Shown: one piece after another, positions 1 to 13,572 of the stretch
Numbering within the stretch: position 1 is the first letter of the stretch
Layout: each line of letters begins with the position of its first letter
Source of the DNA: a virus
Lineage: Duplodnaviria > Heunggongvirae > Uroviricota > Caudoviricetes
Strand: one strand, 5' to 3'
DNA: 13,572 nucleotides
Virus record (IMG/VR): IMGVR_UViG_2671181050_000011
The notes under the pieces: model-generated
What the model saw: only the letters and a program-made list of their open reading frames with translations
Told to the model about the DNA's origin: nothing
The model's database searches: none
Position numbers and translations under genes: made by a program

Positions 1-102
1 AGGCGGAATATATGCGTCACCTTCACCAATAAATTCATTAGTTCCGGCCAGCAGATTATAAATTTTTATGGTCCGTGGTTGTTCACTCATTCTGAATGCC
101 AT
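1..102 (-). CDS. tfa: tail fibre assembly protein Tfa, 5' end only (first 34 codons; CDS continues beyond the window start)
   Basis: Reverse-complement translation from ATG at 102..100 gives [34 protein letters not shown], which matches the N-terminus of lambdoid Tfa proteins as I recall them. The ATG overlaps the stop of the upstream tail-fibre ORF (TAATG), the usual stf-tfa coupling. Confidence 0.8.
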
Positions 103-410
103 TACGCAAGCCTCACAATATAGTTAAATGCGATGTTTTTGACGGTGTTTTCCGCGTTACCAGCAGCGTTAACGGTGATGGTATGTCCATGTGAACCAAT
201 CGCAACGGAGTGCGTATGAGCACCAATACCGACAGTATGTGCGTGTGCACCTGCGCTTGCAGCAGTACCCGATACAGAGTGCGTATGAGCGCCTGCAGAA
301 GAAGTGTTAACACTGTATTTAGAATAATCAGGTGATCCACTTCCCGGAGCACCACTGGAACCACCTGAAACAAATGTCATCGAATGGGTATGTGCACCGG
401 CTGTCCCCAT
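102..410 (-). pseudogene. stf: side tail fibre protein (Stf-like), C-terminal ~100 codons only; remnant joined out of frame to truncated J
   Basis: The minus-strand frame ends ...[22 protein letters not shown] and carries five His-x-His motifs (AHTHS x3, AHAHT, SHGHT), typical of the C-terminal domain of T4 gp37 / lambdoid side tail fibres. No tail-fibre N-terminus is present; upstream of about 405 the J-homologous frame takes over. Confidence 0.65.
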
Positions 411-2427
411 GCATTTACCGCCCGGACTGTCAGCCTGTAATTTCCCAGCGCCAGCTGCGTGAAGCGATATGTGGTTTCCGTCGTCCGGGCCGTGCTGACC
501 AACCGCTCACTGCCGTCGTCCGCTGCCACGGTCAGGCGAAGCATAAAGCTCACCCCCTTCACCACCTTCGGCGTGTCCCAGCGCGCCAGCACCTGGTATT
601 CCCCGCTGTCTGCGGTGACTTCTGCGGTCAGGTGCTGAACTGCTGGCGGCGTGACACCATTCACCGTGCCGCTCTGGTCACCGTCAAAGTGCGCCCCGTT
701 ATCCACGATGGCTTCTTTCTCCGGTACATGCTGCACGGCAGCTTCAGCCCCCACACGCTGTACTCGGCAACGCCGTCAGGAACCCGGCTCACTTTCACCT
801 TCACGCCGTCGGTGACGGACTGGACCTCCACGCTCACCGGATTACCCTGCCCGTCAACCAGGCTTATCAGCGTGGTGCCGGAGGATGGCAGCGTGATTTC
901 ACGGTCGAGCGTCAGTGTCCGCGTCTGGCTGTTCACCGCCAGCACGCGCCCGCCGATGCTGATCCCCGCATAGTCATCATCACAGATTTCAATGACATCA
1001 CCTGGTACATGGCGAAGCCCTTCGGCACCCACGCTGAAGTCCACGGTCTGCGTTTCCAGCAGTTCCGTTTTAATCAGCCACAGCCCGGCTCGGTGCGCCT
1101 GCCCCCGCCTGGTACAGCCAAAGGCATCCATCTTCGTGACGTTACGACCGTAACGGGCAATGGCCTGCGTGTCCTCCACAAGCTCTGTCGCCGTCTCCCA
1201 GCCGTTATCCGGGTCAATCCAGTTCACCTCAACGGCATTATGGCGGTCCTTCAGGGCGCTGAAGCTGTAGCGGAACGGCGCGCCATCATCCGGCATCACC
1301 ACATTACTGCGGTTATAGGTCCACACCTTATCTGATGGTCGGTCCTGCACGAACGTCAGCGTCTGCCCGTTCCATACCGGCATACAGCGCATCGCCGAGC
1401 AGAAATCACTGAGAACATCCCACGCCTTACGCTGTGTGGTCAGCCAGGCATTACAGGTGATGCGCGGCTCCGTGCCGCCAAAACCGTCTGGCACCGACTG
1501 GTCGCAACACTGGCCGATGACATACAGCGCCCATTTATCCACATCTGCCGCACCAAGACGTTTACCCATGCCGTAGCGCGGGTGGGTCAGCATATCCCAC
1601 AGACACCAGGCCATGTTGTTGCTGTATGCTGGCTTAAACGTTCCGTCCCAGATACCGCTGTATTGCCGCGTCTGCGGGTTATAGTTCGACGGCACCTGCA
1701 GAATACGCCCGCGAAGATGATAATTACGGCTCACCTGCTGGCTGCCGAACTGCTCCGAATCCACCTGTACGCCGACCAGTGCCGTGTTCGGGTAGCACTG
1801 TTTCACATCGATGATTTCGGTGTATGACGACCAGAGCGTTTTGTTCTGCAGCTGGTCTGTGGTGCTGTCCGGCGTCATCCTGCGCATCCGGATGTTGAAC
1901 GGGCGCGGCGGCAGATTATCCACCACTACCGAGGCCAGATACTGCGAGGTGGTTTTGCCCTTAATGGTGATGTCTTTTTCCGTCACCCAGCCACCGTTAC
2001 GTTGTATCTGAACCAGCAGGCGAACTTCCGACGGATTCCTGTCCCCCTTTGAGGTGGTTTCCACCAGTGCCTGCACACCGAAGGTAAAGCGCAGACGGTC
2101 GATGTTTGCAGACGTAATGGTGCGGGTGATCGGCGTGTCATATTTCACTTCCGTACCCAGCACCGTCTCGGAGCCGGAGGATTCAAACCCCTCCGGCGGT
2201 GTCTGCTCCTGCTCACCGGCACGGAACACCACCGTGACACCGGAGATGTTGGTATTCCCCTCAGTGTCCAGCACCGGCGTACTGTTCAGCAGCACGCTTT
2301 TTAATCCATCCACCGGACCTTCAACCGGCCCTTCGCTGATGGCATCGATCACACTCAGCAACTGCGTGGACTTCAGGTTGTCCTTCGCTTCGCGCGGGGT
2401 ATGCCCCTTACTGCTTCCTTTACCCAT
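377..2427 (-). pseudogene. J: tail tip / host specificity protein J, N-terminal ~690 of ~1130 codons, disrupted by an internal frameshifting deletion and truncated at a junction with stf
   Basis: ORF 2427..661 starts MGKGSSKGHTPREAKDNLKSTQLLSVIDAISEGP..., near-identical to the lambda gpJ N-terminus as recalled. J similarity then continues in a different frame (754..377: AVQHVPEKEAIVDNGAHFDG...RAVNAWGQ) and stops at about 401. ATG at 2427..2425; 60-nt gap after I as in lambda. Confidence 0.88.
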
Positions 2428-2487
2428 TCCTCACGCTCCATAAACGACAAAACCGCCCGGAGGCGGTTTCACATAAAACATTTTGCA

Positions 2488-3135
2488 TCAGCGACCAATC
2501 ACCACAACCTGACCACCGTCCCCTTCGTCTGCCGTGCTGATCTCCTGAGAAGCCACCCGCGACCCCACGCGCATTTCACCGTACAGAACAGGCAGAACAT
2601 TGCCCTGGGCAACCATGTTATCCAGTGAGGAGAAATAGGTGTTCTGCTTACCGTTATCCGTTGTCTGTGTACGGGGAGTTCTGGCTTTCGGTGCCAGCAT
2701 CTGCGCCACACCGCCAAGGATCATACTGGCCCCCGCAGCATACATGCCCGATAAAGCCGCAGCTCCCAGCCAGCCTGCAGGGTTCCACCACGCCACTGCA
2801 ATCAGCGCCGCACCCAGCACCGCCTGAAACACACCGCCACTTTTTGCTCCCGCAAGACGCGGAACGATGTGGATCACGGCACCATTTTTCAGCGGCTCAT
2901 TAAGACGGGCTGATAATTCGTTTTCGCCTGCATCACGCCCGGCAATGCGCACCTGATACCAGCCCTCATTCAGTTTCTGACGAAACGCCGGGAGCTGTGT
3001 GACCAGTGCCCGGATGGCTTCAGCCCCCGTTTTCACACGAAGGTCGATGCGGCGGCCAAATCGTTGCAAATCCCCGTAAAGGCAGATGCGTGCCATGCCC
3101 GGTGACGCCAGAGGGAGTGTGTGCGTCGCTGCCAT
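2488..3135 (-). CDS. I: tail assembly protein I
   Basis: 215-aa ORF MAATHTLPLASPGMARICLYGDLQRFGRRIDLRVKTGAEAIRAL...GDGGQVVVIGR, very similar to lambda gpI as recalled. ATG at 3135..3133. Its 5' end overlaps K by 103 nt, as in lambda. Confidence 0.9.
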   Translation of the reverse strand: MAATHTLPLASPGMARICLYGDLQRFGRRIDLRVKTGAEAIRALVTQLPAFRQKLNEGWYQVRIAGRDAGENELSARLNEPLKNGAVIHIVPRLAGAKSGGVFQAVLGAALIAVAWWNPAGWLGAAALSGMYAAGASMILGGVAQMLAPKARTPRTQTTDNGKQNTYFSSLDNMVAQGNVLPVLYGEMRVGSRVASQEISTADEGDGGQVVVIGR

Positions 3136-3776
3136 TTGTCGGTGTACCTCTCTCGTTTACTCAGTTGTTCAGGAATATGGTGCAGCAGCTCGCCGTCGCC
3201 ACAGTAAATGGCGGCATGATTCGGCACCGATGAACCAAAACAGCACAGCAGCACGTCGCCAGGCTGCGCCTCTGTCAGTGGGACACGGTAAAAACCCGTT
3301 GCCTCCATATTGTCAAGATAGAGATTCTGGCCGTGACGCCACCAGTCATCCCCGCGATGAAAATCCGGCATCTCAATTCCCGCCAGATGGTAAGCGTCCC
3401 GGAACAGCGTGTAACAGTCCGTCACCCCGTGCTCAAAGCGCCACCCGGTGAGATGCGGCACACAGAGGAATTTATGAATCGCCCCCCGGCAGACCAGCCA
3501 CCACGGCAAATCACTCTGCACCTGCAGCCGCCGGTCGGCCTCACTCAGCCAGGGCAGACCACCGGGGTGGCTGTGGACCAGCGCCACAATCTCTCCCTGC
3601 ATTTCTGCACTCAGCCAGTCCTCCGGCGACATCCGGAAATACTCCTCCGGCTCACCGGAGATATTCACGCAGGGAAAATATCTTTCTCCCTCCGGCGTTC
3701 TCACCACGAAGCCGCACGACTCTGCTGGCGCACATCGCCGGGCGTGCGCCAGAATCGCTGATTCTGTCTCTGTCAT
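3033..3776 (-). CDS. K: tail assembly protein K (JAB/MPN-type HSHP motif plus NlpC/P60-like C-terminal region)
   Basis: 247-aa ORF MTETESAILAHARRCAPAESCGFVV...ALVHSHPGG..., lambda gpK-like. ATG at 3776..3774, 5 nt after the L stop; the lambda L-K-I-J spacing is conserved. Confidence 0.9.
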   Translation of the reverse strand: MTETESAILAHARRCAPAESCGFVVRTPEGERYFPCVNISGEPEEYFRMSPEDWLSAEMQGEIVALVHSHPGGLPWLSEADRRLQVQSDLPWWLVCRGAIHKFLCVPHLTGWRFEHGVTDCYTLFRDAYHLAGIEMPDFHRGDDWWRHGQNLYLDNMEATGFYRVPLTEAQPGDVLLCCFGSSVPNHAAIYCGDGELLHHIPEQLSKRERYTDKWQRRTHSLWRHRAWHASAFTGICNDLAAASTFV

Positions 3777-3781
3777 GGGAT

Positions 3782-4480
3782 TTACTGCGAAAGTTTGTTA
3801 ATGGAAAGGAAGCCGCCAAAGTTGCCGACGTTATTGCGAAACTTACAGCCGCTCAGGCATTTGCTGCATTTATCCTTCGTGATATCGGACGTCGGCTGGT
3901 CATATTCATCCGCGACAGCCGGACCGTGATAACCGCACTCATCACCGCGATAGGTCCAGGTGCAGGTATTAGCCAGCATGATGCGCCCCGGAAAAACGGC
4001 ACCATCCGTTTCCGTCGGTGTGGAGAGCACAAAGGAGGCACTGACCGCGCTCAGTTCGCTGCACTGCTCGATGCGCCAGCGGCTGATCACCTCCTGCTCC
4101 GGATCGGCGTCACTGTTTCCGTTGACGAAGTTCACCGCATCCAGAAAACGGGCGTAAACCTTACGCCGGACCACCGTTCCGCCGACCAGACTCTGCAGAT
4201 CTTCCGCCATCCCGGTGACCATACCGTACAGGTTAGAAACCGTCAGCGTGGGGCGCGTACTGGTGCCTTTGCCATTCAGTTCAAAACCACTCCCCTGAAT
4301 GGGATACGGCTGATACTGTCGCCCCTGCCAGGTGACCGGCTCACCTTTTTCGTTCTGCTCATTACAGAAAAAATAACGTTCTCCACCAACCTCTGTCAGG
4401 TCGATTTCCCAGAGCACCACGCTGGCCGACTGCTCCGCACGGGTGCATTCATTCAGTGTTTCCTGCCGGATAACCAACAC
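3782..4480 (-). CDS. L: minor tail protein L (Cys-rich C-terminus), but native ATG start replaced by a deletion junction; frame now opens with GTG-TTG
   Basis: 232-codon ORF ...IRQETLNECTRAEQSASVVLWEIDLTEVGGERYFFCNEQ...GGFLSINKLSQ matches lambda gpL from codon 4 onward. The first codons read GTG TTG GTT where lambda has ATG CAG GAT, and no ribosome-binding site is evident upstream. Confidence 0.8.
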   Translation of the reverse strand: MLVIRQETLNECTRAEQSASVVLWEIDLTEVGGERYFFCNEQNEKGEPVTWQGRQYQPYPIQGSGFELNGKGTSTRPTLTVSNLYGMVTGMAEDLQSLVGGTVVRRKVYARFLDAVNFVNGNSDADPEQEVISRWRIEQCSELSAVSASFVLSTPTETDGAVFPGRIMLANTCTWTYRGDECGYHGPAVADEYDQPTSDITKDKCSKCLSGCKFRNNVGNFGGFLSINKLSQ

Positions 4481-4715
4481 GGGCAGACTTCACCACATTC
4501 ACCTCGCGGATGTAGTCGCTGCCCATCGCATTCATGATGGCCCGCTGAAAGGGCAGTGTTTCCCAGCGCCCTTCCTGGTATGCGGATTCTTTCGGGAGAT
4601 AGTAATTGGCATCCGCCCATTCAACGGCGGTCTGTGGCTCCGGCCTGAACAGTGAGCGAAGCCCGGCGCGGACAAAATGCCGCAGCCTGTTAACCTGACT
4701 GTTCGATATATTCAC
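4449..4715 (-). pseudogene. A: terminase large subunit A, N-terminal ~80 codons only, fused out of frame into the start of L
   Basis: GTG-initiated frame MNISNSQVNRLRHFVRAGLRSLFRPEPQTAVEWADANYYLPKESAYQEGRWETLPFQRAIMNAMGSDYIREVNVVKSARVGY matches the lambda gpA N-terminus as recalled, then diverges (PAGNTE*). It overlaps the Nu1 stop by 26 nt, as in lambda. Confidence 0.85.
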
Positions 4716-5235
4716 TCAGCAACCCCGGTATCAGTTCATCCAGCGCGGCTGCTTTGTTCATGGCTTTGATGATATCCCGTTTCAGGAAATCAACATGTCG
4801 GTTTTCCAGTTCCGGAAAACGCCGCTGCACCGACAGGGGGATCCCGTCGAGAATACTGGCAATTTCACCTGCGATCCGCGACAGCACGAAAGTACAGAAT
4901 GCGGTTTCCACCACTTCAGCGGAGTCTCTGGCATTTTTCAGCTCCTGTGCGTCGGCCTGCGCACGCGTAAGTCGATGGCGTTCGTACTCAATAGTCCCTG
5001 GCTGGAGATCTGTCTCGCTGGCCTGCCGCAGTTCTTCAACTTCCCGGCGCAGCTTTTCGTTCTCAATTTCAGCATCCCTTTCGGCATACCATTTTATGAC
5101 GGCGGCAGAATCATAAAGCACCTCATTACCCTTGCCACCGCCTCGCAGAACGGGCATTCCCTGTTCCTGCCAGTTCTGAATGGTACGGATACTCGCACCG
5201 AAAATGTCAGCCAGCTGCTTTTTGTTGACTTCCAT
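4690..5235 (-). CDS. nohA: terminase small subunit Nu1 (cosB-binding, winged-HTH N-terminus)
   Basis: 181-aa ORF MEVNKKQLADIFGASIRTIQNWQEQGMPVLRGGGKGNEVLYDSAAVIKWYAERD...LSEYIEQSG, essentially lambda Nu1 as recalled. ATG at 5235..5233, at the expected distance from the cos end. Confidence 0.92.
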   Translation of the reverse strand: MEVNKKQLADIFGASIRTIQNWQEQGMPVLRGGGKGNEVLYDSAAVIKWYAERDAEIENEKLRREVEELRQASETDLQPGTIEYERHRLTRAQADAQELKNARDSAEVVETAFCTFVLSRIAGEIASILDGIPLSVQRRFPELENRHVDFLKRDIIKAMNKAAALDELIPGLLSEYIEQSG

Positions 5236-5412
5236 TGTTCATTCCACGGACAAAAACAGAGAAAGGAAACGACAAAGGCCAAAAAGCCCGCTTTCAGCAC
5301 CTGTCGTTTCCTTTCTTTTCAGGGGGTATTTTAAATAAAAACATTAAGTTACGACGAAGAAGAACGGAAACACCTTAAACCGGAAAATTTTCATAAATAG
5401 CGAAAACCCGCG
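5236..5412 (-). promoter_or_regulatory. cosB-equivalent region (terminase/IHF binding sites between cosN and Nu1)
   Basis: The reverse complement is near-identical to the first ~190 nt of the lambda genome as I recall it (GGGCGGCGACCTCGCGGGTTTTCGCTATTTATGAAAATTTTCCGGTTTAAGG...). Individual R and I1 sites were not mapped. Confidence 0.6.
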
Positions 5413-5424
5413 AGGTCGCCGCCC
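5413..5424 (-). other. cosN: 12-nt cohesive-end sequence (minus strand GGGCGGCGACCT)
   Basis: The plus strand reads aggtcgccgccc; the reverse complement is GGGCGGCGACCT. It is flanked on one side by cgtaacctgtcggatcacc (reverse complement of the lambda right end ...GGTGATCCGACAGGTTACG), so both cos halves are contiguous as in an integrated or circularised genome. Confidence 0.85.
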
Positions 5425-5623
5425 CGTAACCTGTCGGATCACCGGAAAGGACCCGTAAAGTGATAATGATTATCATCTACATATCACAACGTGCGTGGAG
5501 GCCATCAAACCACGTCAAATAATCAATTATGACGCAGGTATCGTATTAATTGATCTGCATCAACTTAACGTAAAAACAACTTCAGACAATACAAATCAGC
5601 GACACTGAATACGGGGCAACCTC
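5425..5623 (-). other. lambda right-end non-coding region containing cosQ
   Basis: The reverse complement matches the terminal ~200 nt of lambda as recalled (...GATGATAATCATTATCACTTTACGGGTCCTTTCCGGTGATCCGACAGGTTACG). The exact cosQ element was not delimited. Confidence 0.6.
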
Positions 5624-5857
5624 ATGTCAACGAAGAACAGAACCCGCAGAACAACAACCCGCAACATCCGCTTTCCTAACCAAATGATTGAACAAATTAA
5701 CATCGCTCTTGAGCAAAAAGGGTCCGGGAATTTCTCAGCCTGGGTCATTGAAGCCTGCCGCCGGAGACTGTGCTCAGAAAAAAGAGTTTCTTCTGAAGCA
5801 AACAAAGAAAAGAGTGACATTACTGAATTGCTCAGAAAACAGGTCAGACCAGATTGA
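5624..5857 (+). CDS. ynfO: small basic protein with a possible ribbon-helix-helix-like N-terminal region (YnfO-like)
   Basis: 77-aa ORF MSTKNRTRRTTTRNIRFPNQMIEQINIALEQKGSGNFSAWVIEACRRRL..., ATG at 5624 with a weak GGGG Shine-Dalgarno 7 nt upstream. Position and orientation match K-12 Qin ynfO. The fold assignment is inference. Confidence 0.7.
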   Translation: MSTKNRTRRTTTRNIRFPNQMIEQINIALEQKGSGNFSAWVIEACRRRLCSEKRVSSEANKEKSDITELLRKQVRPD

Positions 5858-5914
5858 AGCAATTTAGATAATCGTGCAGACTACGCCCCCTCATATCACA
5901 TGGAAGGTTTATCT

Positions 5915-6325
5915 ATGGATCAGGTAGTCATTTTTAAACAAATATTTGATAAAGTTCGAAACGATTTAAACTATCAATGGTTTTATTCTGAGCTAAAACG
6001 TCACAATGTCTCACATTACATTTACTATTTAGCCACAGAGAATGTTCATATTGTATTAAAAAATGATAATACAGTGTTATTAAAGGGCCTAAAAAACATT
6101 GTGTCTGTCAAATTTTCAAAGGATAGGCATCTTATAGAAACGACCTCTAATAAGCTGAAATCCAGAGAGATCACATTTCAGGAATACAGAAGAAACCTTG
6201 CTAAAGCAGGAGTTTTTCGGTGGGTTACAAATATCCACGAACAAAAAAGATATTACTATACCTTTGATAATTCATTACTATTTACTGAAAGCATCCAGAA
6301 AACTACACAGATCTTACCACGCTAA
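5915..6325 (+). CDS. ydfO: uncharacterised prophage protein (YdfO-like, DUF1398 family as recalled)
   Basis: ORF 5900..6325; preferred start is the ATG at 5915 ([32 protein letters not shown]...), which has GGAAGG 7 nt upstream and gives 136 aa. AT-rich codon usage, unlike the tail genes. Confidence 0.75.
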
Positions 6326-6333
6326 ACCATAAC

Positions 6334-6362
6334 GTCCGGCTTCTCTCACTCCTGAGCCGGAC
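6334..6362. other. GC-rich inverted repeat (8-bp stem GTCCGGCT / AGCCGGAC, 13-nt loop) just after ydfO
   Basis: Perfect 8-bp inverted repeat seen directly. There is no clear U-tract, so its role (terminator, RNA stability element or protein site) is unresolved. Confidence 0.3.
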
Positions 6363-6476
6363 TGCATTGGTTTAATAAAAACCATCAACAATTGTGATTT
6401 AGATATTCGGAACCATTCAAATATAACAAAACCCCGTAAAAACGAGGTTTATGGATAAATTTTATTATTGAATACA

Positions 6477-6649
6477 TCAGATTAAATTAATCTTGACATC
6501 ATAGCTTTCAAGACCCGTCATTTTTTCCCGTGCGGTAAACTGAATACTGGTAACTTCTTTCCCGGTCTTTTTCTTAAGTTCAATAATTTTTTTGTTATAT
6601 ATTCAGAAATATCTGCTTCTGCTTTTGTTTTTAAGTTTTCAATATTCAT
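6477..6649 (-). pseudogene. gnsB: GnsB-like small protein gene interrupted by a 1-nt frameshift in an A7 homopolymer
   Basis: From ATG 6649 (AAGAGGA just upstream) the frame reads MNIENLKTKAEADISEYITKK, then shifts. The continuation IIELKKKTGKEVTSIQFTAREKMTGLESYDVKINLI* lies in the +1 frame after the A-run at 6587..6593. Both halves resemble GnsA/GnsB (MNIEELKKQAETEIADFIAQKIAELNKNTGKEVSEIRFTAREKMTGLESYDVKIKIM, from memory). Confidence 0.7.
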
Positions 6650-6820
6650 CATTTCCTCTTTTAGTCTGTTATGACTTTCCAGTTACACAGTAAGTCGATT
6701 ATATGGTGCAAACGTGTAAAAGATAAGATGAAACATCGCAATAATCAACATACGATAGTCTAAATTTTACACAAACAGACAAAGAGAATTTTCCTGAATT
6801 ATCAATGCAATAGCATCAAA

Positions 6821-7051
6821 TCAACTCAAGAGCCTTATTGCTGCTTCCAGAATTTCTTCTGAAGTAACATGTCGATCCGCGGCTACATAAATGACTTTAT
6901 GATCTCCGGTCAGAGATGGAAACCCTGCGGCCATTACAGTAAGGTGTGTTTTTTCGCCATTTGGATATTCACGCATGATGGTGTTAACTCCAGTCATCGC
7001 TGGCACTACCACTGCTGGTTCAGAGTTAAAAAAAACTATGATTTTTTTCAT
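6821..7051 (-). CDS. ynfN: small uncharacterised protein (YnfN-like by position)
   Basis: ORF 6821..7093; preferred start is ATG 7051 (MKKIIVFFNSEPAVVVPAMTGVNTIMREYPNGEKTH..., 76 aa). No convincing Shine-Dalgarno, so the start is uncertain. Position matches ynfN in K-12 Qin gene order. Confidence 0.55.
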   Translation of the reverse strand: MKKIIVFFNSEPAVVVPAMTGVNTIMREYPNGEKTHLTVMAAGFPSLTGDHKVIYVAADRHVTSEEILEAAIRLLS

Positions 7052-7095
7052 GATGTTACCGTAGTATGTGAGTATCCATCGAATAGACACCAAGC

Positions 7096-7117
7096 AAAAA
7101 AGCTCCCGAAGGAGCCT
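7096..7117 (-). terminator. candidate intrinsic terminator downstream of cspI (minus-strand orientation)
   Basis: Hairpin GCTCC-cgaa-GGAGC (7102..7115); on the minus strand the stem is followed by TTTTTTGCTT. Confidence 0.45.
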
Positions 7118-7322
7118 TCATTTTCACTTTTTTAAATCCAACGACAGACGGCTGGCATTTAAGTATTGTGAAATATTATCAAATGTAATCATCATTGATT
7201 TACAAAAGATACATTTTGCCCCGAAAGGATTCATGTCAGAAACATCAAAAGATGATGTTCTATACTGGGAACCATGACAACACGGGCATCTAAAGTGAAT
7301 ATGGTTTGTAATATTGTCTACC

Positions 7323-7535
7323 TCAAAGCGCCACTACATGAACAGCGGCAGGACCTTTAGGTCCGTTCTCAATACCAAATTCAACTTCCTGATTCTCAGT
7401 TAATGTTTTGAAATCGTTGCTCTGAATTGCTGAGAAATGGACAAACACATCTTTGCTGCCATCTTTCGGCGTGATGAAACCAAAACCTTTTTCAGGGTTA
7501 AACCATTTCACTAAACCAGTCATTTTGTTAGACAT
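7323..7535 (-). CDS. cspI: cold-shock protein, CspA family (CspI-like)
   Basis: 70-aa [73 protein letters not shown] with RNP1-like (KGFGFI) and RNP2-like (VFVHF) motifs. ATG at 7535 preceded by AAAGGTAATAATT, resembling the cspA translation initiation region. Confidence 0.9.
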
Positions 7536-7898
7536 AATTATTACCTTTTGAAGAAATTAGCCCTTGGGCAGAATGGTCCGAAAAAAAAATATCAGAGAGA
7601 AAAACCAACAAGGAAATCTCAAGAGGTACAAATAATAAAATTATAACAATGACTGCTTCAGATAAATTTGTAACAAACCAGAACACCATTAACGCATGAT
7701 TAACCACCCATAGCAAGGATTACTTTTGTAAAGAAAAACACAGCAATGAAAGAATAGCTTTATTTATTAATAAAACGTGTCATTCTGATTAAGACCTTTT
7801 ATCTTACCCTTAAGATTTCAGGAATTTTGGCTCATGGAAGAGTCCTTTTTATTTAAATTTTACATTCCGCGATGTAAATGTTCCGATTTAATATTACC

Positions 7899-8922
<1,024 letters not shown>

Positions 8923-8926
<4 letters not shown>

Positions 8927-9234
8927 AGATATTTATGATGAGGACGCTCGTGCTTATTGGCAGGATTTTCAATCTTAAAGGAGTACTGATGCTGCAGATA
9001 AGACTCAACTTTTTCTGACAATTTTTCTGCTACTTCCAGGAAGACTTGCCGGACGCTCCTTCTGGCTGCTGCCTCATAAAACTCCAGCGCAGCTCCTTCA
9101 ACACGGTCCATGGCGACATCCAGGTCAAAAATTTCACCGTCAAAGCGTTCTTTGTCCTGTAAGGCTACAGTTACCGTAACTTTATTCTCAAAATTACGGA
9201 CTCCTTTCACAACCAGTTCATAGTCTTGAGTCAT
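8923..9234 (-). CDS. ydfR: uncharacterised protein between holin and endolysin (YdfR-like, DUF1327 as recalled)
   Basis: 103-aa ORF MTQDYELVVKGVRNFENKVTVTVALQDKERFDGEIFDLDVAMDRVEGAALEFYEAAARR.... ATG at 9234, 4 nt after the holin stop; its stop overlaps the endolysin start. Confidence 0.7.
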
Positions 9235-9238
9235 TGGA

Positions 9239-9454
9239 TTACTCTCCTCTCGCAGCCTTACGCCTGTCTTCTTTAATCTTGAAATAAAGATTTGTCAGAT
9301 ACGTCAGCAGGCCAAAAACCAGGCTACCCAGCACACCGATTGCAGCCCACTGTGACGGAGTTACTTTATCGAGTAACTGCAATGCCCAGAAACCAGCATT
9401 ACCCGCCGATGTGCCATAGGCAACACCTGTTGTTAACTTATCCATTGATTTCAT
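9239..9454 (-). CDS. essQ: class II holin / pinholin (phage 21 S-like) with dual-start motif
   Basis: From ATG 9454: [71 protein letters not shown] (71 aa), two transmembrane segments and a charged C-terminus. Met1-Lys-Ser-Met4 gives the holin/antiholin dual start; GAGGA lies just upstream. Confidence 0.85.
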
Positions 9455-9673
9455 ATCCTCACCCCGATGTACACGGATGGTGCAATATGTTTGAAAAGAT
9501 CGGAGTCTACGGGGTAGTTTTGACAGCACACGTTGTTCTCAACGGCGCTAAAAAAACATACACATTAAAAATGTGGGTAATTATTTTGAAAGAAAGTCAT
9601 ATATAAAATAATAATACGAGAAATGTTTTCATATTTAGTGTACTGTATACGGCCATTTATACAGGAAAAGCCT

Positions 9674-9844
9674 ATGTCAGAACGTAAAAACTCAAAATCA
9701 CGCCGTAATTATCTCGTTAAATGTTCCTGCCCAAACTGCACCCAAGAGTCAGAACACAGTTTTTCAAGAGTACAAAAAGGTGCCCTTTTGATCTGCCCTC
9801 ATTGCAACAAAGTATTCCAGACAAATCTTAAAGCTGTAGCCTGA
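9674..9844 (+). CDS. small zinc-ribbon protein (CxxC ... CxxC), possibly the Qin small protein YnfU
   Basis: ATG at 9674 with AGGA 7 nt upstream: MSERKNSKSRRNYLVKCSCPNCTQESEHSFSRVQKGALLICPHCNKVFQTNLKAVA (56 aa). Two Cys pairs are spaced as in a zinc ribbon. The ynfU name is a guess from memory. Confidence 0.55.
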   Translation: MSERKNSKSRRNYLVKCSCPNCTQESEHSFSRVQKGALLICPHCNKVFQTNLKAVA

Positions 9845-9907
9845 TTGATTTTATTAGTAACAAGTATTTTTTATATTTTAATAATATATTTAAAGCAGAT
9901 AATAAAA

Positions 9908-9926
9908 AACCCGCCTGAGCGGGTTT
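9908..9926 (-). terminator. candidate intrinsic terminator (7-bp stem AACCCGC / GCGGGTT, loop CTGA), strongest in minus-strand orientation
   Basis: On the minus strand the stem is followed by TTTTTTATTAT. It lies ~280 nt downstream of the cspB stop and upstream of the lysis cassette. Confidence 0.5.
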
Positions 9927-10207
9927 GAGATTGTGGTGCTTTTTGTGGGAGTCATCCACTTACGCACTTTGTTTTGCCATGCCAGCAGTTAGCTTCTGCT
10001 GTAAAACTATTCATGCAGCAAACCTGCACTTCACCACAATGGTTAGCATACTTTTCCTGATTAAGATTTTGCCAAATATGCTAGCCATTGTTTCATGTAT
10101 TGGACCTCCTTACTTTTTATTAAAGAGATCCAATATTCACTACTCTGTCCGTATCTCTACTCAGGCATCAGCCTTCTTCGTTATCGTATACAGACGAGCG
10201 ATGAATT

Positions 10208-10423
10208 TTAATCAGTAATGATGACATTTGCTGCTGCAGGACCTTTAGCACCACTCTCTATAGAGAAGGTAACCTTTTGACCTTCAAATAAGGTTCGATA
10301 ATTATCATTCTGAATCGCAGAAAAATGCACAAACACATCTTTACTACCATCAACAGGAGAAATAAAGCCGAAACCTTTATCAGCGTTAAACCATTTTACT
10401 AAACCAGTCATTTTATTTGACAT
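10208..10423 (-). CDS. cspB: cold-shock protein, CspA family (CspB-like)
   Basis: 71-aa [77 protein letters not shown] at 10423 with AAGGA 7 nt upstream. Divergent from cspF, as in K-12 Qin. Confidence 0.9.
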
Positions 10424-10723
10424 TCTACATTCCTTAACTTGAGCCTTTCGGCATAAATGGTTTGCATAACAGAAACGACTTCGTACTTAATTGGAGAGAC
10501 TCAAAGAAGGAATAAGTGAATAACACCTGAAATGAGAACTGCTTTAGTAAACTACTTCGTATATCGTCTGTTCTTCAAACCGACGCAATCATTAACGCAT
10601 AGTTGAACATATGAAGCAATGTTTATTTTAGACATCCAGCCATCTTCAACCCCATCAAAAAACTATAGCTTTCTTCAGGAACGTGTGTATAGTGTGCCAA
10701 GTTATCAGTATTAAGGAATTTTT

Positions 10724-10936
10724 TTGTCCCGTAAAATGACAGGAATTGTCAAAACCTTTGACGGCAAAAGCGGCAAGGGTCTTATCACCCCATCCGATGG
10801 TCGTATCGATGTCCAGCTTCATGTTTCAGCGCTCAATCTCCGCGATGCAGAAGAAATTACCACCGGATTACGCGTGGAATTTTGCCGGATAAATGGTCTG
10901 CGTGGCCCTTCAGCTGCCAATGTTTACCTTTCATGA
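10724..10936 (+). CDS. cspF: CspA-family paralogue lacking the aromatic RNP motifs (CspF/CspH-like), apparent TTG start
   Basis: [70 protein letters not shown]. Codon 1 is TTG (10724..10726) with AGGA 6 nt upstream; the first ATG (10736) has no Shine-Dalgarno at proper spacing. Confidence 0.85.
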
Positions 10937-10990
10937 GCTATATTAAAGCTTTAATTTCAGGCCCCATCGGATCACACATGGAGAGTTTTT

Positions 10991-11080
10991 ATGAATAACC
11001 CCGTCTGTCTTGATGACTGGTTGATTGGCTTTAAAAGCTTATGCTGTACTTTGGCCGTAATAGCTCTGCTAATAATATAA
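10991..11080 (+). CDS. candidate 29-aa hydrophobic small protein (unannotated-size ORF)
   Basis: GGAGAG 5 nt upstream of the ATG: [29 protein letters not shown]. The C-terminal half is hydrophobic and could span a membrane. Too short for the supplied ORF track. Confidence 0.3.
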
Positions 11081-11230
11081 TAAGCAGACTCATTGTGTTT
11101 AGGGACATTGTACTGGAAGAAAACATTTTAAACATCAGGCAAATAACCAAGTCACCAGCTAAATAATAAGTTAACAGACATGAGTCCCGGGATGAGATTC
11201 AACATTACCATTGCCCCATTTAAAGCACAA

Positions 11231-11248
11231 AACCCGCTCATCAGCGGG
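11231..11248. terminator. bidirectional-looking intrinsic terminator hairpin (7-bp stem ACCCGCT / AGCGGGT, loop CATC)
   Basis: The plus strand has AAAA before and TTTTCTACTTTTTCTT after the stem; the minus strand has TTTGTGCTTT after it. It sits between the Q stop (11358) and cspF, where a lambdoid tR' would be expected. Confidence 0.5.
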
Positions 11249-11286
11249 TTTTCTACTTTTTCTTAACGTCGGGTATACAAAGCCCA

Positions 11287-11315
11287 TCGTTGAAAAAATT
11301 TTATCCATATTTTTT
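11287..11315 (-). promoter_or_regulatory. candidate sigma-70 late promoter (pR'-like) downstream of Q
   Basis: On the minus strand: TTGCAT (11315..11310), 17-nt spacer, TAAAAT (11292..11287). It is ~45-70 nt downstream of the Q stop and upstream of the 11231..11248 hairpin. No qut/pause site was verified. Confidence 0.35.
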
Positions 11316-11357
11316 GAAAAATGCAAACATCATGTCGCCATCTTCAGCAAAAATCAT

Positions 11358-12110
11358 TTATCTCGTCACCTTCCTCAATTGCGCTTCCGCGTATGCTTCT
11401 TCCTGCCAGCACTTTGTTACCAGTTTACCAATGACGTCCGCATACCCCTTATACCACTGATAATCGGTCAGGTCTGGTACCAGCTTCTGGACATGACGTC
11501 GTGCCAGCGTGGTCGGTAAACGACTAAACCGGTTTCCATTACAACGCCCACAAATCTTATATACCGGTACGCCATGAAACCGGGTTCTTTTTTCATCCAG
11601 AACAATCCCTTTACCCTTACACCCTCTGCACGCTGTGCTGGCTTCGCCCTTACCATGGCAATGCTGACATAGTTCCTTCACCCATTCTTCCTTGATTACA
11701 GATTCCCCGCGTCTGTAGTGTTTCACCACTTCGCGCAATACATTATAAAATCCCGTACCTGAACAATGCTCACAGCGAGCCTTACTTGCCGCAGACCTGG
11801 AGTAATCAGCAAAGGCAAAACTCACGAGGTAAGGAATAATCTGTAACCGGATTTCTTCACTCAATTTGTTCAATGTCGGGTTATCCAGTGCCATCGCGTA
11901 ATTTAGCAGGCCTTCAATCGCAAACTGAGGGTCCTGAACACCAACTTTTGCCAGAAATAAGGCCAACCCAAATGGTGCTTTCGACTGCACCATCCTCTGC
12001 GCTGCCATTACATCCGTAATTGTTAAACAACCGGTGCCTGTCGCTGGAGCGTCATCGCTCAATTTTGGAGATTTTGGGGAGTAATATTTTGGTAAGGCTT
12101 CAAGGTTCAT
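11358..12110 (-). CDS. quuQ: late-gene antiterminator Q (Cys-rich, multiple CxxC zinc-binding motifs)
   Basis: ORF 11358..12140; preferred start ATG 12110 (MNLEALPKYYSPKSPK..., 250 aa) with GGAG 7 nt upstream. Motifs CEHCSGTG, CQHCHGKG, CRGCKGKG and CGRCNGN are present. Position is immediately upstream of the lysis region, as for Q. Confidence 0.88.
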   Translation of the reverse strand: MNLEALPKYYSPKSPKLSDDAPATGTGCLTITDVMAAQRMVQSKAPFGLALFLAKVGVQDPQFAIEGLLNYAMALDNPTLNKLSEEIRLQIIPYLVSFAFADYSRSAASKARCEHCSGTGFYNVLREVVKHYRRGESVIKEEWVKELCQHCHGKGEASTACRGCKGKGIVLDEKRTRFHGVPVYKICGRCNGNRFSRLPTTLARRHVQKLVPDLTDYQWYKGYADVIGKLVTKCWQEEAYAEAQLRKVTR

Positions 12111-12123
12111 GCTCGTTCTCCAC

Positions 12124-13173
12124 TTACGCCAGTACGCCAATTGCCAGCGCGCGATCGATAAAACGAAATATCAGCTCCAGTTGGGAGCCATACTTATCTT
12201 CAAATGCCACTGTATCCGTATGCAGCTCGTTGTGATGCTTTCTGCACAAAGGCAACACAAAGAGATCATGTGCTTTTGTTCCCATTCCGCCCTGCCCGTG
12301 ACCAATCAGATGATGCGGATCGTCGGCTGGCATACCGCAGCAAGCACACGGCTGTGTCTTAACCCAACGTGTGTATTTCTCCTTAACCCAGCGGCGACGT
12401 TTAGGCAGCTTCATGAAAGATTCCGGAGACTCTGGATCAACGGTGATGCTTACCACCGTCTTTTCCTGTGGTGATTTTTGTTGCTGGTGGGCGTAAGGCA
12501 ACGGTGCAAGATTTTTTGTGCGTTGTTTCAATATGCTGGTGGCGGTCTGCTCTCCCGGTACGATGTCGCTTTCGCGGTACACCGAGCAGATTTTTTCCGC
12601 TGGTAATCCCAGCGAACGACGCGATACAGCCTCAGGTAGTGCATCCACCACCTGATTGCAGACCGCCCACCAGGATAATTCAGCCAAAGATAATTCCCGC
12701 TCCTGCGTACCGCTTATTGCGTGACGGATGACGTCAATCACCCATGCTGTCAGATTTTGTTGAGCAAGCAGCTCCAGTGATTCCGATGTCTGGTCACGCA
12801 GTTGGTTGTCGCAGTGCCAGCACAACACCATTGCGCCGGTACCATAACGGTGAATGACTGTTTCAGTGTGATGGTAATCGCCATTAGGCCACTGGCAGGA
12901 TGTAACATGACGTAATAGCCAGTCGGACAATGCGCCAACGCCGCCAGCAGCACGAATCACCCGTTCGTTACTAAAAAACGGCAGCAATGTTTTGTCTTCC
13001 GCCAGCGGCTGGCGAACGGCAGGAACGACTCCGGATGGCAGATTACGCATGCTTTTTGGTTCCGGTTCCACCAGCACTCGAGGATTATGAAATATCTGTA
13101 TGGATTCACGGCCCGGCTTAAGGACCACCAGCCCAAGCTCAGGCACCAGAACAGGTCTAAGTAATACCCGCAC
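12124..13173 (-). CDS. ydfU: YdfU-like protein (DUF968 as recalled) with C-terminal HNH-like Cys/His motif
   Basis: ORF 12124..13212; preferred start is GTG 13173 (349 aa), which has GGAGG upstream and abuts the rem stop. C-terminal motif CACCGMPADDPHHLIGHGQGG...LCRKHHNELH. Confidence 0.8.
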   Translation of the reverse strand: MRVLLRPVLVPELGLVVLKPGRESIQIFHNPRVLVEPEPKSMRNLPSGVVPAVRQPLAEDKTLLPFFSNERVIRAAGGVGALSDWLLRHVTSCQWPNGDYHHTETVIHRYGTGAMVLCWHCDNQLRDQTSESLELLAQQNLTAWVIDVIRHAISGTQERELSLAELSWWAVCNQVVDALPEAVSRRSLGLPAEKICSVYRESDIVPGEQTATSILKQRTKNLAPLPYAHQQQKSPQEKTVVSITVDPESPESFMKLPKRRRWVKEKYTRWVKTQPCACCGMPADDPHHLIGHGQGGMGTKAHDLFVLPLCRKHHNELHTDTVAFEDKYGSQLELIFRFIDRALAIGVLA

Positions 13174-13174
13174 G

Positions 13175-13453
13175 TTACCTCCAGATCCGTTGCTGGAAAG
13201 TGCGGGACGCACGTGGTGGGCGTTCGGAATAAGGCAGCCTGACAGAGATTATCCAGTGCCGATAGTCGAGACTGAGAGCTTTCTTAACCTCGAACCCGCG
13301 CCTGCGGTAAGAATGAATCAGCCATTCGGCCTGTTCTGCAGTGCATGGAGGGTGCTGGAACCATTCAGACTTGAATGCGTGAGAATACCGCCCGTGCGTG
13401 CAGGCAAGAACGGGCGAATTATCAGAATTGTAATATTTTGCGTTGCGTGCCAT
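13175..13453 (-). CDS. rem: small uncharacterised prophage protein (Rem-like by position)
   Basis: ORF MARNAKYYNSDNSPVLACTHGRYSHAFKSEWFQHPPCTAEQAEWLIHSYRRRGFEVKK..., ATG at 13453 with GGAG 8 nt upstream. Location 5' of ydfU matches K-12 Qin order. Confidence 0.75.
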   Translation of the reverse strand: MARNAKYYNSDNSPVLACTHGRYSHAFKSEWFQHPPCTAEQAEWLIHSYRRRGFEVKKALSLDYRHWIISVRLPYSERPPRASRTFQQRIWR

Positions 13454-13572
13454 CGGTTTTCTCCGGTGGCACGGTGTTACTCAGCGGGAGTTCAGCCCAT
13501 AAGCGCTAACTTAAGGGTTGAACCATCTGAAGAATGCGACGCCTCGGTGCCTCGTTAAGACGATGCCTCGCG

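Follow-up and report, generated by a model that had tools for sequence, protein, structure and literature searches.

The remnant of the tail tip gene J in a Qin-like cryptic prophage of E. coli carries a 73-bp frameshifting gap. We put the probability at about 85% that this gap is a late, private and neutral slippage-type loss in a J gene that was already dead. The window, meaning the whole stretch of DNA that was analysed (13,572 nucleotides, IMG/VR record IMGVR_UViG_2671181050_000011), records two successive events. J first became a pseudogene, cut past codon 700 and fused to a tail-fibre fragment, and later, in the lineage of one strain, 73 bp would have been lost between two CTGCCG repeats, one copy being kept, as a neutral and private step of prophage decay. 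The case amounts to the usual decay of a pseudogene; the cryptic prophage is already known and only the strain-specific allele is new. It offers a clean case of cryptic prophage erosion with a datable order of events.

A 73-bp gap splits J over two reading frames

The minus-strand ORF 2427..661 encodes a 588-aa product (translation of window 661..2427). Residues 1-564 of this product align without gaps to J of phage mEp460 (1,137 aa), with 560/564 residues identical in BLASTP, and the match stops after ...AEYSVWGLKLP. The codon of Pro564 (738..736) is followed by 24 junk codons, translated as CSMYRRKKPSWITGRTLTVTRAAR, and a TGA at 663..661; BLASTP gave no similarity between this 24-residue tail and mEp460 J past residue 564. 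A second minus-strand ORF in another frame (377..754) matches mEp460 J residues 585-700 at 114/116 positions (BLASTP), with the true homology starting at V589/Q590 (...AVQHVPEKEAIVDNGAHFDG...). J restarts one base back in this other frame and runs on to codon 700 (window 401). The gene does not hold the ~1,132-1,137 aa of J in one continuous frame, being broken at window 736 and stopped at 663..661, and the predicted translation from the J start is J(1-564) plus 24 junk residues. The features referred to below, all on the minus strand, are as follows.

400..2427, minus strand: J' pseudogene remnant, J codons 1-700 minus 73 bp (megablast to mEp460 J, annotation, Pfam)
736..2427, minus strand: J codons 1-564, read in the original frame and running from the start ATG (2427..2425) to Pro564 (738..736) (BLASTP, translation)
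736..741, minus strand: deletion junction with the lone remaining CTGCCG copy (alignments to mEp460 and 1332KP)
661..735, minus strand: 24 junk codons read out of frame past the junction, closed by the TGA at 663..661 (translation, BLASTP)
401..736, minus strand: J codons 589-700 in the displaced frame (BLASTP 114/116 to mEp460; Pfam Ig_J, E = 3.9e-36)
736..734, 733..731 and 403..401, minus strand: displaced-frame codons GTG (V589), CAG (Q590) and Q700, respectively
102..400, minus strand: stf' fragment, annotated in 1332KP as 'tail fiber protein, incomplete, missing N-terminus', and then tfaQ

DNA alignments to mEp460 and to E. coli 1332KP place a gap of exactly 73 nt here, which is the sole indel in J. 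Missing are codons 565-588 (24 residues, TLRQRLFRCVSIRENDDGTYAITA) and the first base of codon 589; since 73 = 3x24+1, the frame shifts. The join in the window reads GCTGAAGCTGCCG followed directly by TGCAGCATGTA, and the undeleted J' form of 1332KP contains ...CTGCCGACGCTGCG.... The gap rests on alignments at 98-100% identity and not on a statistical pattern, so that chance is no concern. It should be noted for annotators that the 588-aa and 109-aa 'genes' called in this region are two pieces of one pseudogene.

A preliminary description of the window, made from the sequence alone, had proposed an internal out-of-frame deletion in J, and the one clean 73-nt gap against both mEp460 and 1332KP bears this out. 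Its codon positions (P at 738..736, Q at 733..731, stop at 663..661) are all exact, its 24 junk codons before the stop at 661 are the CSMYRRKKPSWITGRTLTVTRAAR then TGA of the translation, and the lambda gpJ peptide that it named as missing is correct (TLRQRLFRCVSIRENDDGTYAITA). The estimated loss of ~70 nt or ~25 codons was near, the exact figure being 73 nt, that is, 24 codons and 1 nt. Alignment at the protein level across the junction likewise leaves J split over two frames, with genuine homology in the second frame (114/116).

Both J' segments, codons 1-564 as well as 589-700, show 98-99% identity to J of mEp460 (mEp460 gp18). That protein aligns from end to end with lambda gpJ chain 8iyk_J (PDB 8IYK), one of several lambda gpJ structures on record. 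Pfam analysis of the 588-aa product returned FNIII-A_GpJ and Phage-tail_3 (E = 4e-42 and 2e-42), so the hub region is present. The deleted residues 565-588 sit between Phage-tail_3 (330-498) and Ig_J (610-714), and codons 589-700 hold most of the first Ig/FNIII domain (Pfam Ig_J). J' differs from an intact lambda-type J in two respects, namely the 73-bp frameshifting deletion and the loss of everything after residue 700.

The J remnant was already truncated

J is cut after codon 700 and joined directly to a C-terminal piece of the side tail fibre gene (window 377-420); the megablast match to mEp460 J stops at J nt 2101, corresponding to window 400. The stop codon of stf' (104..102) overlaps the start codon of tfaQ (102..100). 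The C-terminal ~437 codons of J are absent, and with them the second Ig domain, the tail-tip fibre and the receptor-binding domain. In Pfam terms, the J' remnant holds FNIII-A_GpJ, Phage-tail_3 and Ig_J only, and Ig_J_second, Phage_Tail_Tip and Ig_GpJ_C, all found in mEp460 J, are absent from both window fragments. PMC11101478 gives the domain order of gpJ as hub domains including OB, FNIII-1, FNIII-2, AHS (helical shaft), CSF (central fibre) and RBD, so that in its nomenclature the parts lost after residue 700 are FNIII-2, AHS, CSF and RBD. The corresponding J' of 1332KP was annotated by PGAP as 'TipJ family phage tail tip protein, incomplete, missing C-terminus'.

The order of the two lesions can be read from their distribution. 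A 40-mer spanning the J'-stf' junction (window 381-420) occurs in 90 of 5,426 complete E. coli chromosomes, once in each, and the deletion in none, which makes the truncation the older, inherited lesion and the deletion recent and private. By this sequence distribution, the J'-stf' fusion is an inherited feature of the present Qin variant. The preliminary description had called the deletion a second, independent inactivating lesion. It is indeed independent of the stf' fusion at ~400, but because the gene was already truncated before the deletion, 'inactivating' is true only in a formal sense.

A Qin-like prophage closely related to that of 1332KP

Gene content and order identify the window as a Qin-like cryptic prophage of E. 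coli, in which the minus-strand genes run ydfU - quuQ/ydfT - cspF/cspB - essD-ydfR-rrrQ-rzpQ - cspI - gnsB - ydfO - nohA, continuing after nohA with terL' - L - K - I - J' - stf' - tfaQ'. The alignment of window 1..13498 with the annotated locus in 1332KP shows this Qin-type gene set and order. The RefSeq annotation of 1332KP lists rem, a hypothetical gene, ydfU, ydfT (antiterminator Q), cspF, cspB, ynfU, essD, ydfR, rrrQ, rzpQ, cspI, ymcF, ynfR, ynfN, gnsB, ydfO, ynfO, nohA, a terminase-large fragment, L, K (C40 peptidase), I, J', stf', tfaQ, IS1414, pinQ, ydfK and ydfJ. In 1332KP, relBE/hokD/rem border the locus at one end and pinQ/ydfK/ydfJ at the other; the window stops short of these host flanks. 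The names and order annotated in 1332KP are those of the Qin cryptic prophage, whose K-12 genes include essQ/D, stfQ, tfaQ and pinQ, and the present Qin variant keeps terL'-L-K-I-J' between nohA and stf'/tfaQ. Qin of K-12 is not known to carry the terL'-L-K-I-J' genes.

Window 1..741 is 100% identical to 1332KP, and window 736..13498 differs from it by six SNPs and two 1-nt homopolymer indels. With so few other differences, the deletion must be recent on this background. Gene order and the older lesions (terL' fragment, J' without C-terminus, stf' without N-terminus) are common to 1332KP and the window, and to these the window adds a homopolymer frameshift in gnsB, the IS421/IS186-like insertion at 13498/13499 and the private 73-bp deletion. 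The SNPs correspond to K R112W, a synonymous change at J P313, rrrQ I80T, ydfT L47F and G39R, and window position 10695.

Head genes, tail tube genes and the tape measure gene are absent from the prophage. The terL' fragment after nohA (window ~4470-4715, minus strand), for which 1332KP has the annotation 'phage terminase large subunit, incomplete', lies directly against the minor tail gene L, itself intact. This terL'/L join is the scar of a large deletion of the head genes and most tail genes. In the ~22-kb version of strain 789, tail genes and the tape measure gene are still in place. L (232 aa), K (247 aa) and I (215 aa) are intact ORFs (window 2488-4480, minus strand) even though the prophage cannot make a tail.

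The deletion junction is known from the window and one public draft contig

The 40-mer across the deletion junction (window 718-757) was found in 0/5,426 complete E. coli genomes and 0/50,697 phage records, and a junction 24-mer gave zero matches in GTDB species representatives, IMG/VR and JGI metagenomes. The J'-stf' junction, found in 90 genomes, served as positive control for the exact 40-mer search. Recurrence of the junction elsewhere was rejected on the basis of these exact searches. Both junction flanks were matched in 111 genomes of the complete E. coli set, and the match span was 153 bases (the 80-base query plus 73 extra) in 30/30 of the matches listed.

The exact 588-aa product was found on one public contig only, CAJSJY010000070.1 of assembly GCA_907175985.1 (13,443 bp, listed for '2 samples'), which is 100% identical to window 107..8427, the junction included. 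The window outreaches this contig by 106 nt at the tfaQ end and, by arithmetic, by ~23 nt at the other end. Given these different ends, the window is a separately built contig with the same junction. The known junction carriers are draft contigs of short-read style, ~13.4-13.6 kb long and ending in repeats, and they may derive from one isolate or even one read set. In practical terms, the deletion junction can be used as a strain- or lineage-specific marker.

End points of the deletion and a possible mechanism

A perfect 6-bp direct repeat, left out of the preliminary description, flanks the lost segment. The 1332KP sequence reads ...GGGCTGAAG CTGCCG ACGCTGCGT...TATGCCATCA CTGCCG TGCAGCATG..., with CTGCCG at J nt 1687 and 1760 of the undeleted gene, 73 bp apart, and the window retains one copy at 741..736. 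Correspondingly, the BLAST pieces 1..741 and 736..13498 overlap by the 6 CTGCCG bases. For a random 20-200-bp deletion of this gene, the probability of junction microhomology of at least 6 bp is 0.0024 (0.24%). The 2.1-kb gene remnant contains 117 comparable repeat pairs, so that the CTGCCG pair is not special among them.

End points at a short direct repeat, with one copy kept, are a classic signature of biological deletion by slipped-strand mispairing or RecA-independent microhomology deletion. Spontaneous deletions between short direct repeats, attributed to replication slippage or RecA-independent processes, have classically been described for lacI in E. coli, and the J' deletion resembles such events in its perfect 6-bp flanks, 73 bp apart, with one copy kept. 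The 6-bp repeat at the junction is what makes slippage between short repeats the most likely mechanism. A nascent strand ending in the first CTGCCG would re-pair with the second copy and the 73 nt between them would be skipped, either through slipped-strand mispairing in replication or through an equivalent RecA-independent microhomology-mediated deletion. The lost J segment contains no palindrome able to form a hairpin: the fold of the undeleted 96-nt DNA segment contained no notable hairpin and was no stabler than that of shuffled sequences (z = -0.77), and hairpin-promoted slippage was therefore rejected.

Could the gap be an artefact?

The alternative that survives best, which we nevertheless consider unlikely, is that the 73-bp gap arose in assembly or sequencing and that the strain has an undeleted J' like that of 1332KP. 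Such an error would fit a junction that none of the 5,426 complete genomes contains, and likewise carriers that are all draft contigs ending in repeats. J-like genes are moreover multicopy in E. coli, at a median of 3 places per genome, and the two 1-nt homopolymer differences from 1332KP are possible sequencing errors in either assembly. However, a 6-bp repeat is far below any assembler k-mer, so repeat collapse cannot account for the gap, and the sequences on either side of it match one and the same Qin J' copy at 100% identity, not two different J paralogues. The junction is also present both in the window and in the NCBI contig with its different ends, and short direct repeats at the end points are, as established, typical of biological deletions. 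We infer that the deletion exists in cells, beyond the assemblies.

Consequences for the J remnant

Taken as a real loss of 73 bp, the deletion is probably neutral. In a prophage without head genes, tail tube genes and the J receptor-binding domain, no phage function would be affected.

We see very little room for the idea that the frameshifted gene is functional, either through a programmed -1 frameshift restoring J(1-564)+J(589-700) or through co-option of the 588-aa hub fragment by the host. A -1 shift at the junction leads from one frame to the other and the upstream genes L, K and I are still intact ORFs, but a slippery heptamer of the type X XXY YYZ is absent at GCTGCCGTGC, the junction G CTG CCG TGC not being slippery. 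Even the restored frame would end in the fusion stop after codon 700, without the tail-tip domains. In addition, the junk tail is unlike anything in J, and the allele is private to one strain, without conservation pointing to selection. Programmed frameshifting was accordingly rejected, given the missing slippery site and the absence of the junction from complete E. coli and phage records.

Similarly improbable is a selective advantage in this lineage, whether of the J(1-564)+24 product or of the lost J' read-through into stf'/tfaQ, which would make the deletion a domestication step. If true, a toxic or immunogenic hub-Ig fusion would have been removed, or a stand-alone hub fragment would have been made available to the host or a co-resident phage.

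That the gap is a natural length variant of J and no lesion at all can practically be dismissed: J proteins are mosaic and 25-30% of the phage matches are quite diverged, but a gap of 73 nt is not divisible by three and throws the gene out of frame, arithmetic on which this candidate was rejected, the related phages and genomes listed all carry ~73 extra bases here, and the flanks are 100% identical to an allele with the segment, with the junction in 0 complete E. coli genomes and phages.

Lesions of J' in other strains

Gene callers place a 109-aa ORF downstream of the break (window 706..380, with a GTG start at 706), and with this ORF as query two further contigs were retrieved in which the J' remnant is broken differently. 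The first, CBDHSH010000140.1 of GCA_965266225.1, has the end of a Mu-like transposable prophage (~1-1470 of the retrieved sequence) inserted in the J' remnant, with genes for c-repressor-like, Ner-like and MuA-like transposase proteins beside it; only 4 bp separate this end from the right end point of the deletion seen in the window, upstream of which it lies. The second is an ENA metagenome scaffold in which the J' remnant is joined to an unrelated upstream gene. Both lesions start within ~15 nt of the right end of the deletion. A breakpoint hotspot was considered and rejected as ascertainment bias, since the query retrieves only cases in which the gene caller starts at GTG 706. Such a start needs a lesion just upstream, and the nearness of the break points is thus no evidence for a hotspot. 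Independent lesions in other strains do indicate that the J' remnant decays freely.

Other recent changes in the window

The deletion is accompanied by an IS insertion and a homopolymer frameshift, all three recent and absent from the nearest complete genome, that of 1332KP. The window closes with the terminus of an IS4-family element (IS421/IS186-like; last 74 bases, 13499-13572) that is multicopy: this sequence occurs at 8,421 places in 2,144 E. coli genomes, and in strain 720632 it adjoins a gene annotated 'IS4-like element IS421 family transposase'. As 1332KP has no IS at 13498/13499, the insertion, near the hypothetical gene next to ydfU, is strain-specific, and its terminus probably explains why the draft contig ends here.

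In gnsB (window ~6477-6652, minus strand), the window has an A7 run at 6587-6593 where 1332KP has A8. The frame shifts after codon ~21, giving a 44-aa product compared with the 57-aa GnsB; either a real phase-type frameshift or an error in sequencing the homopolymer, in one assembly or the other, may account for this. An intergenic A8-to-A9 difference from 1332KP lies between cspI and rzpQ (window ~7573-7581).
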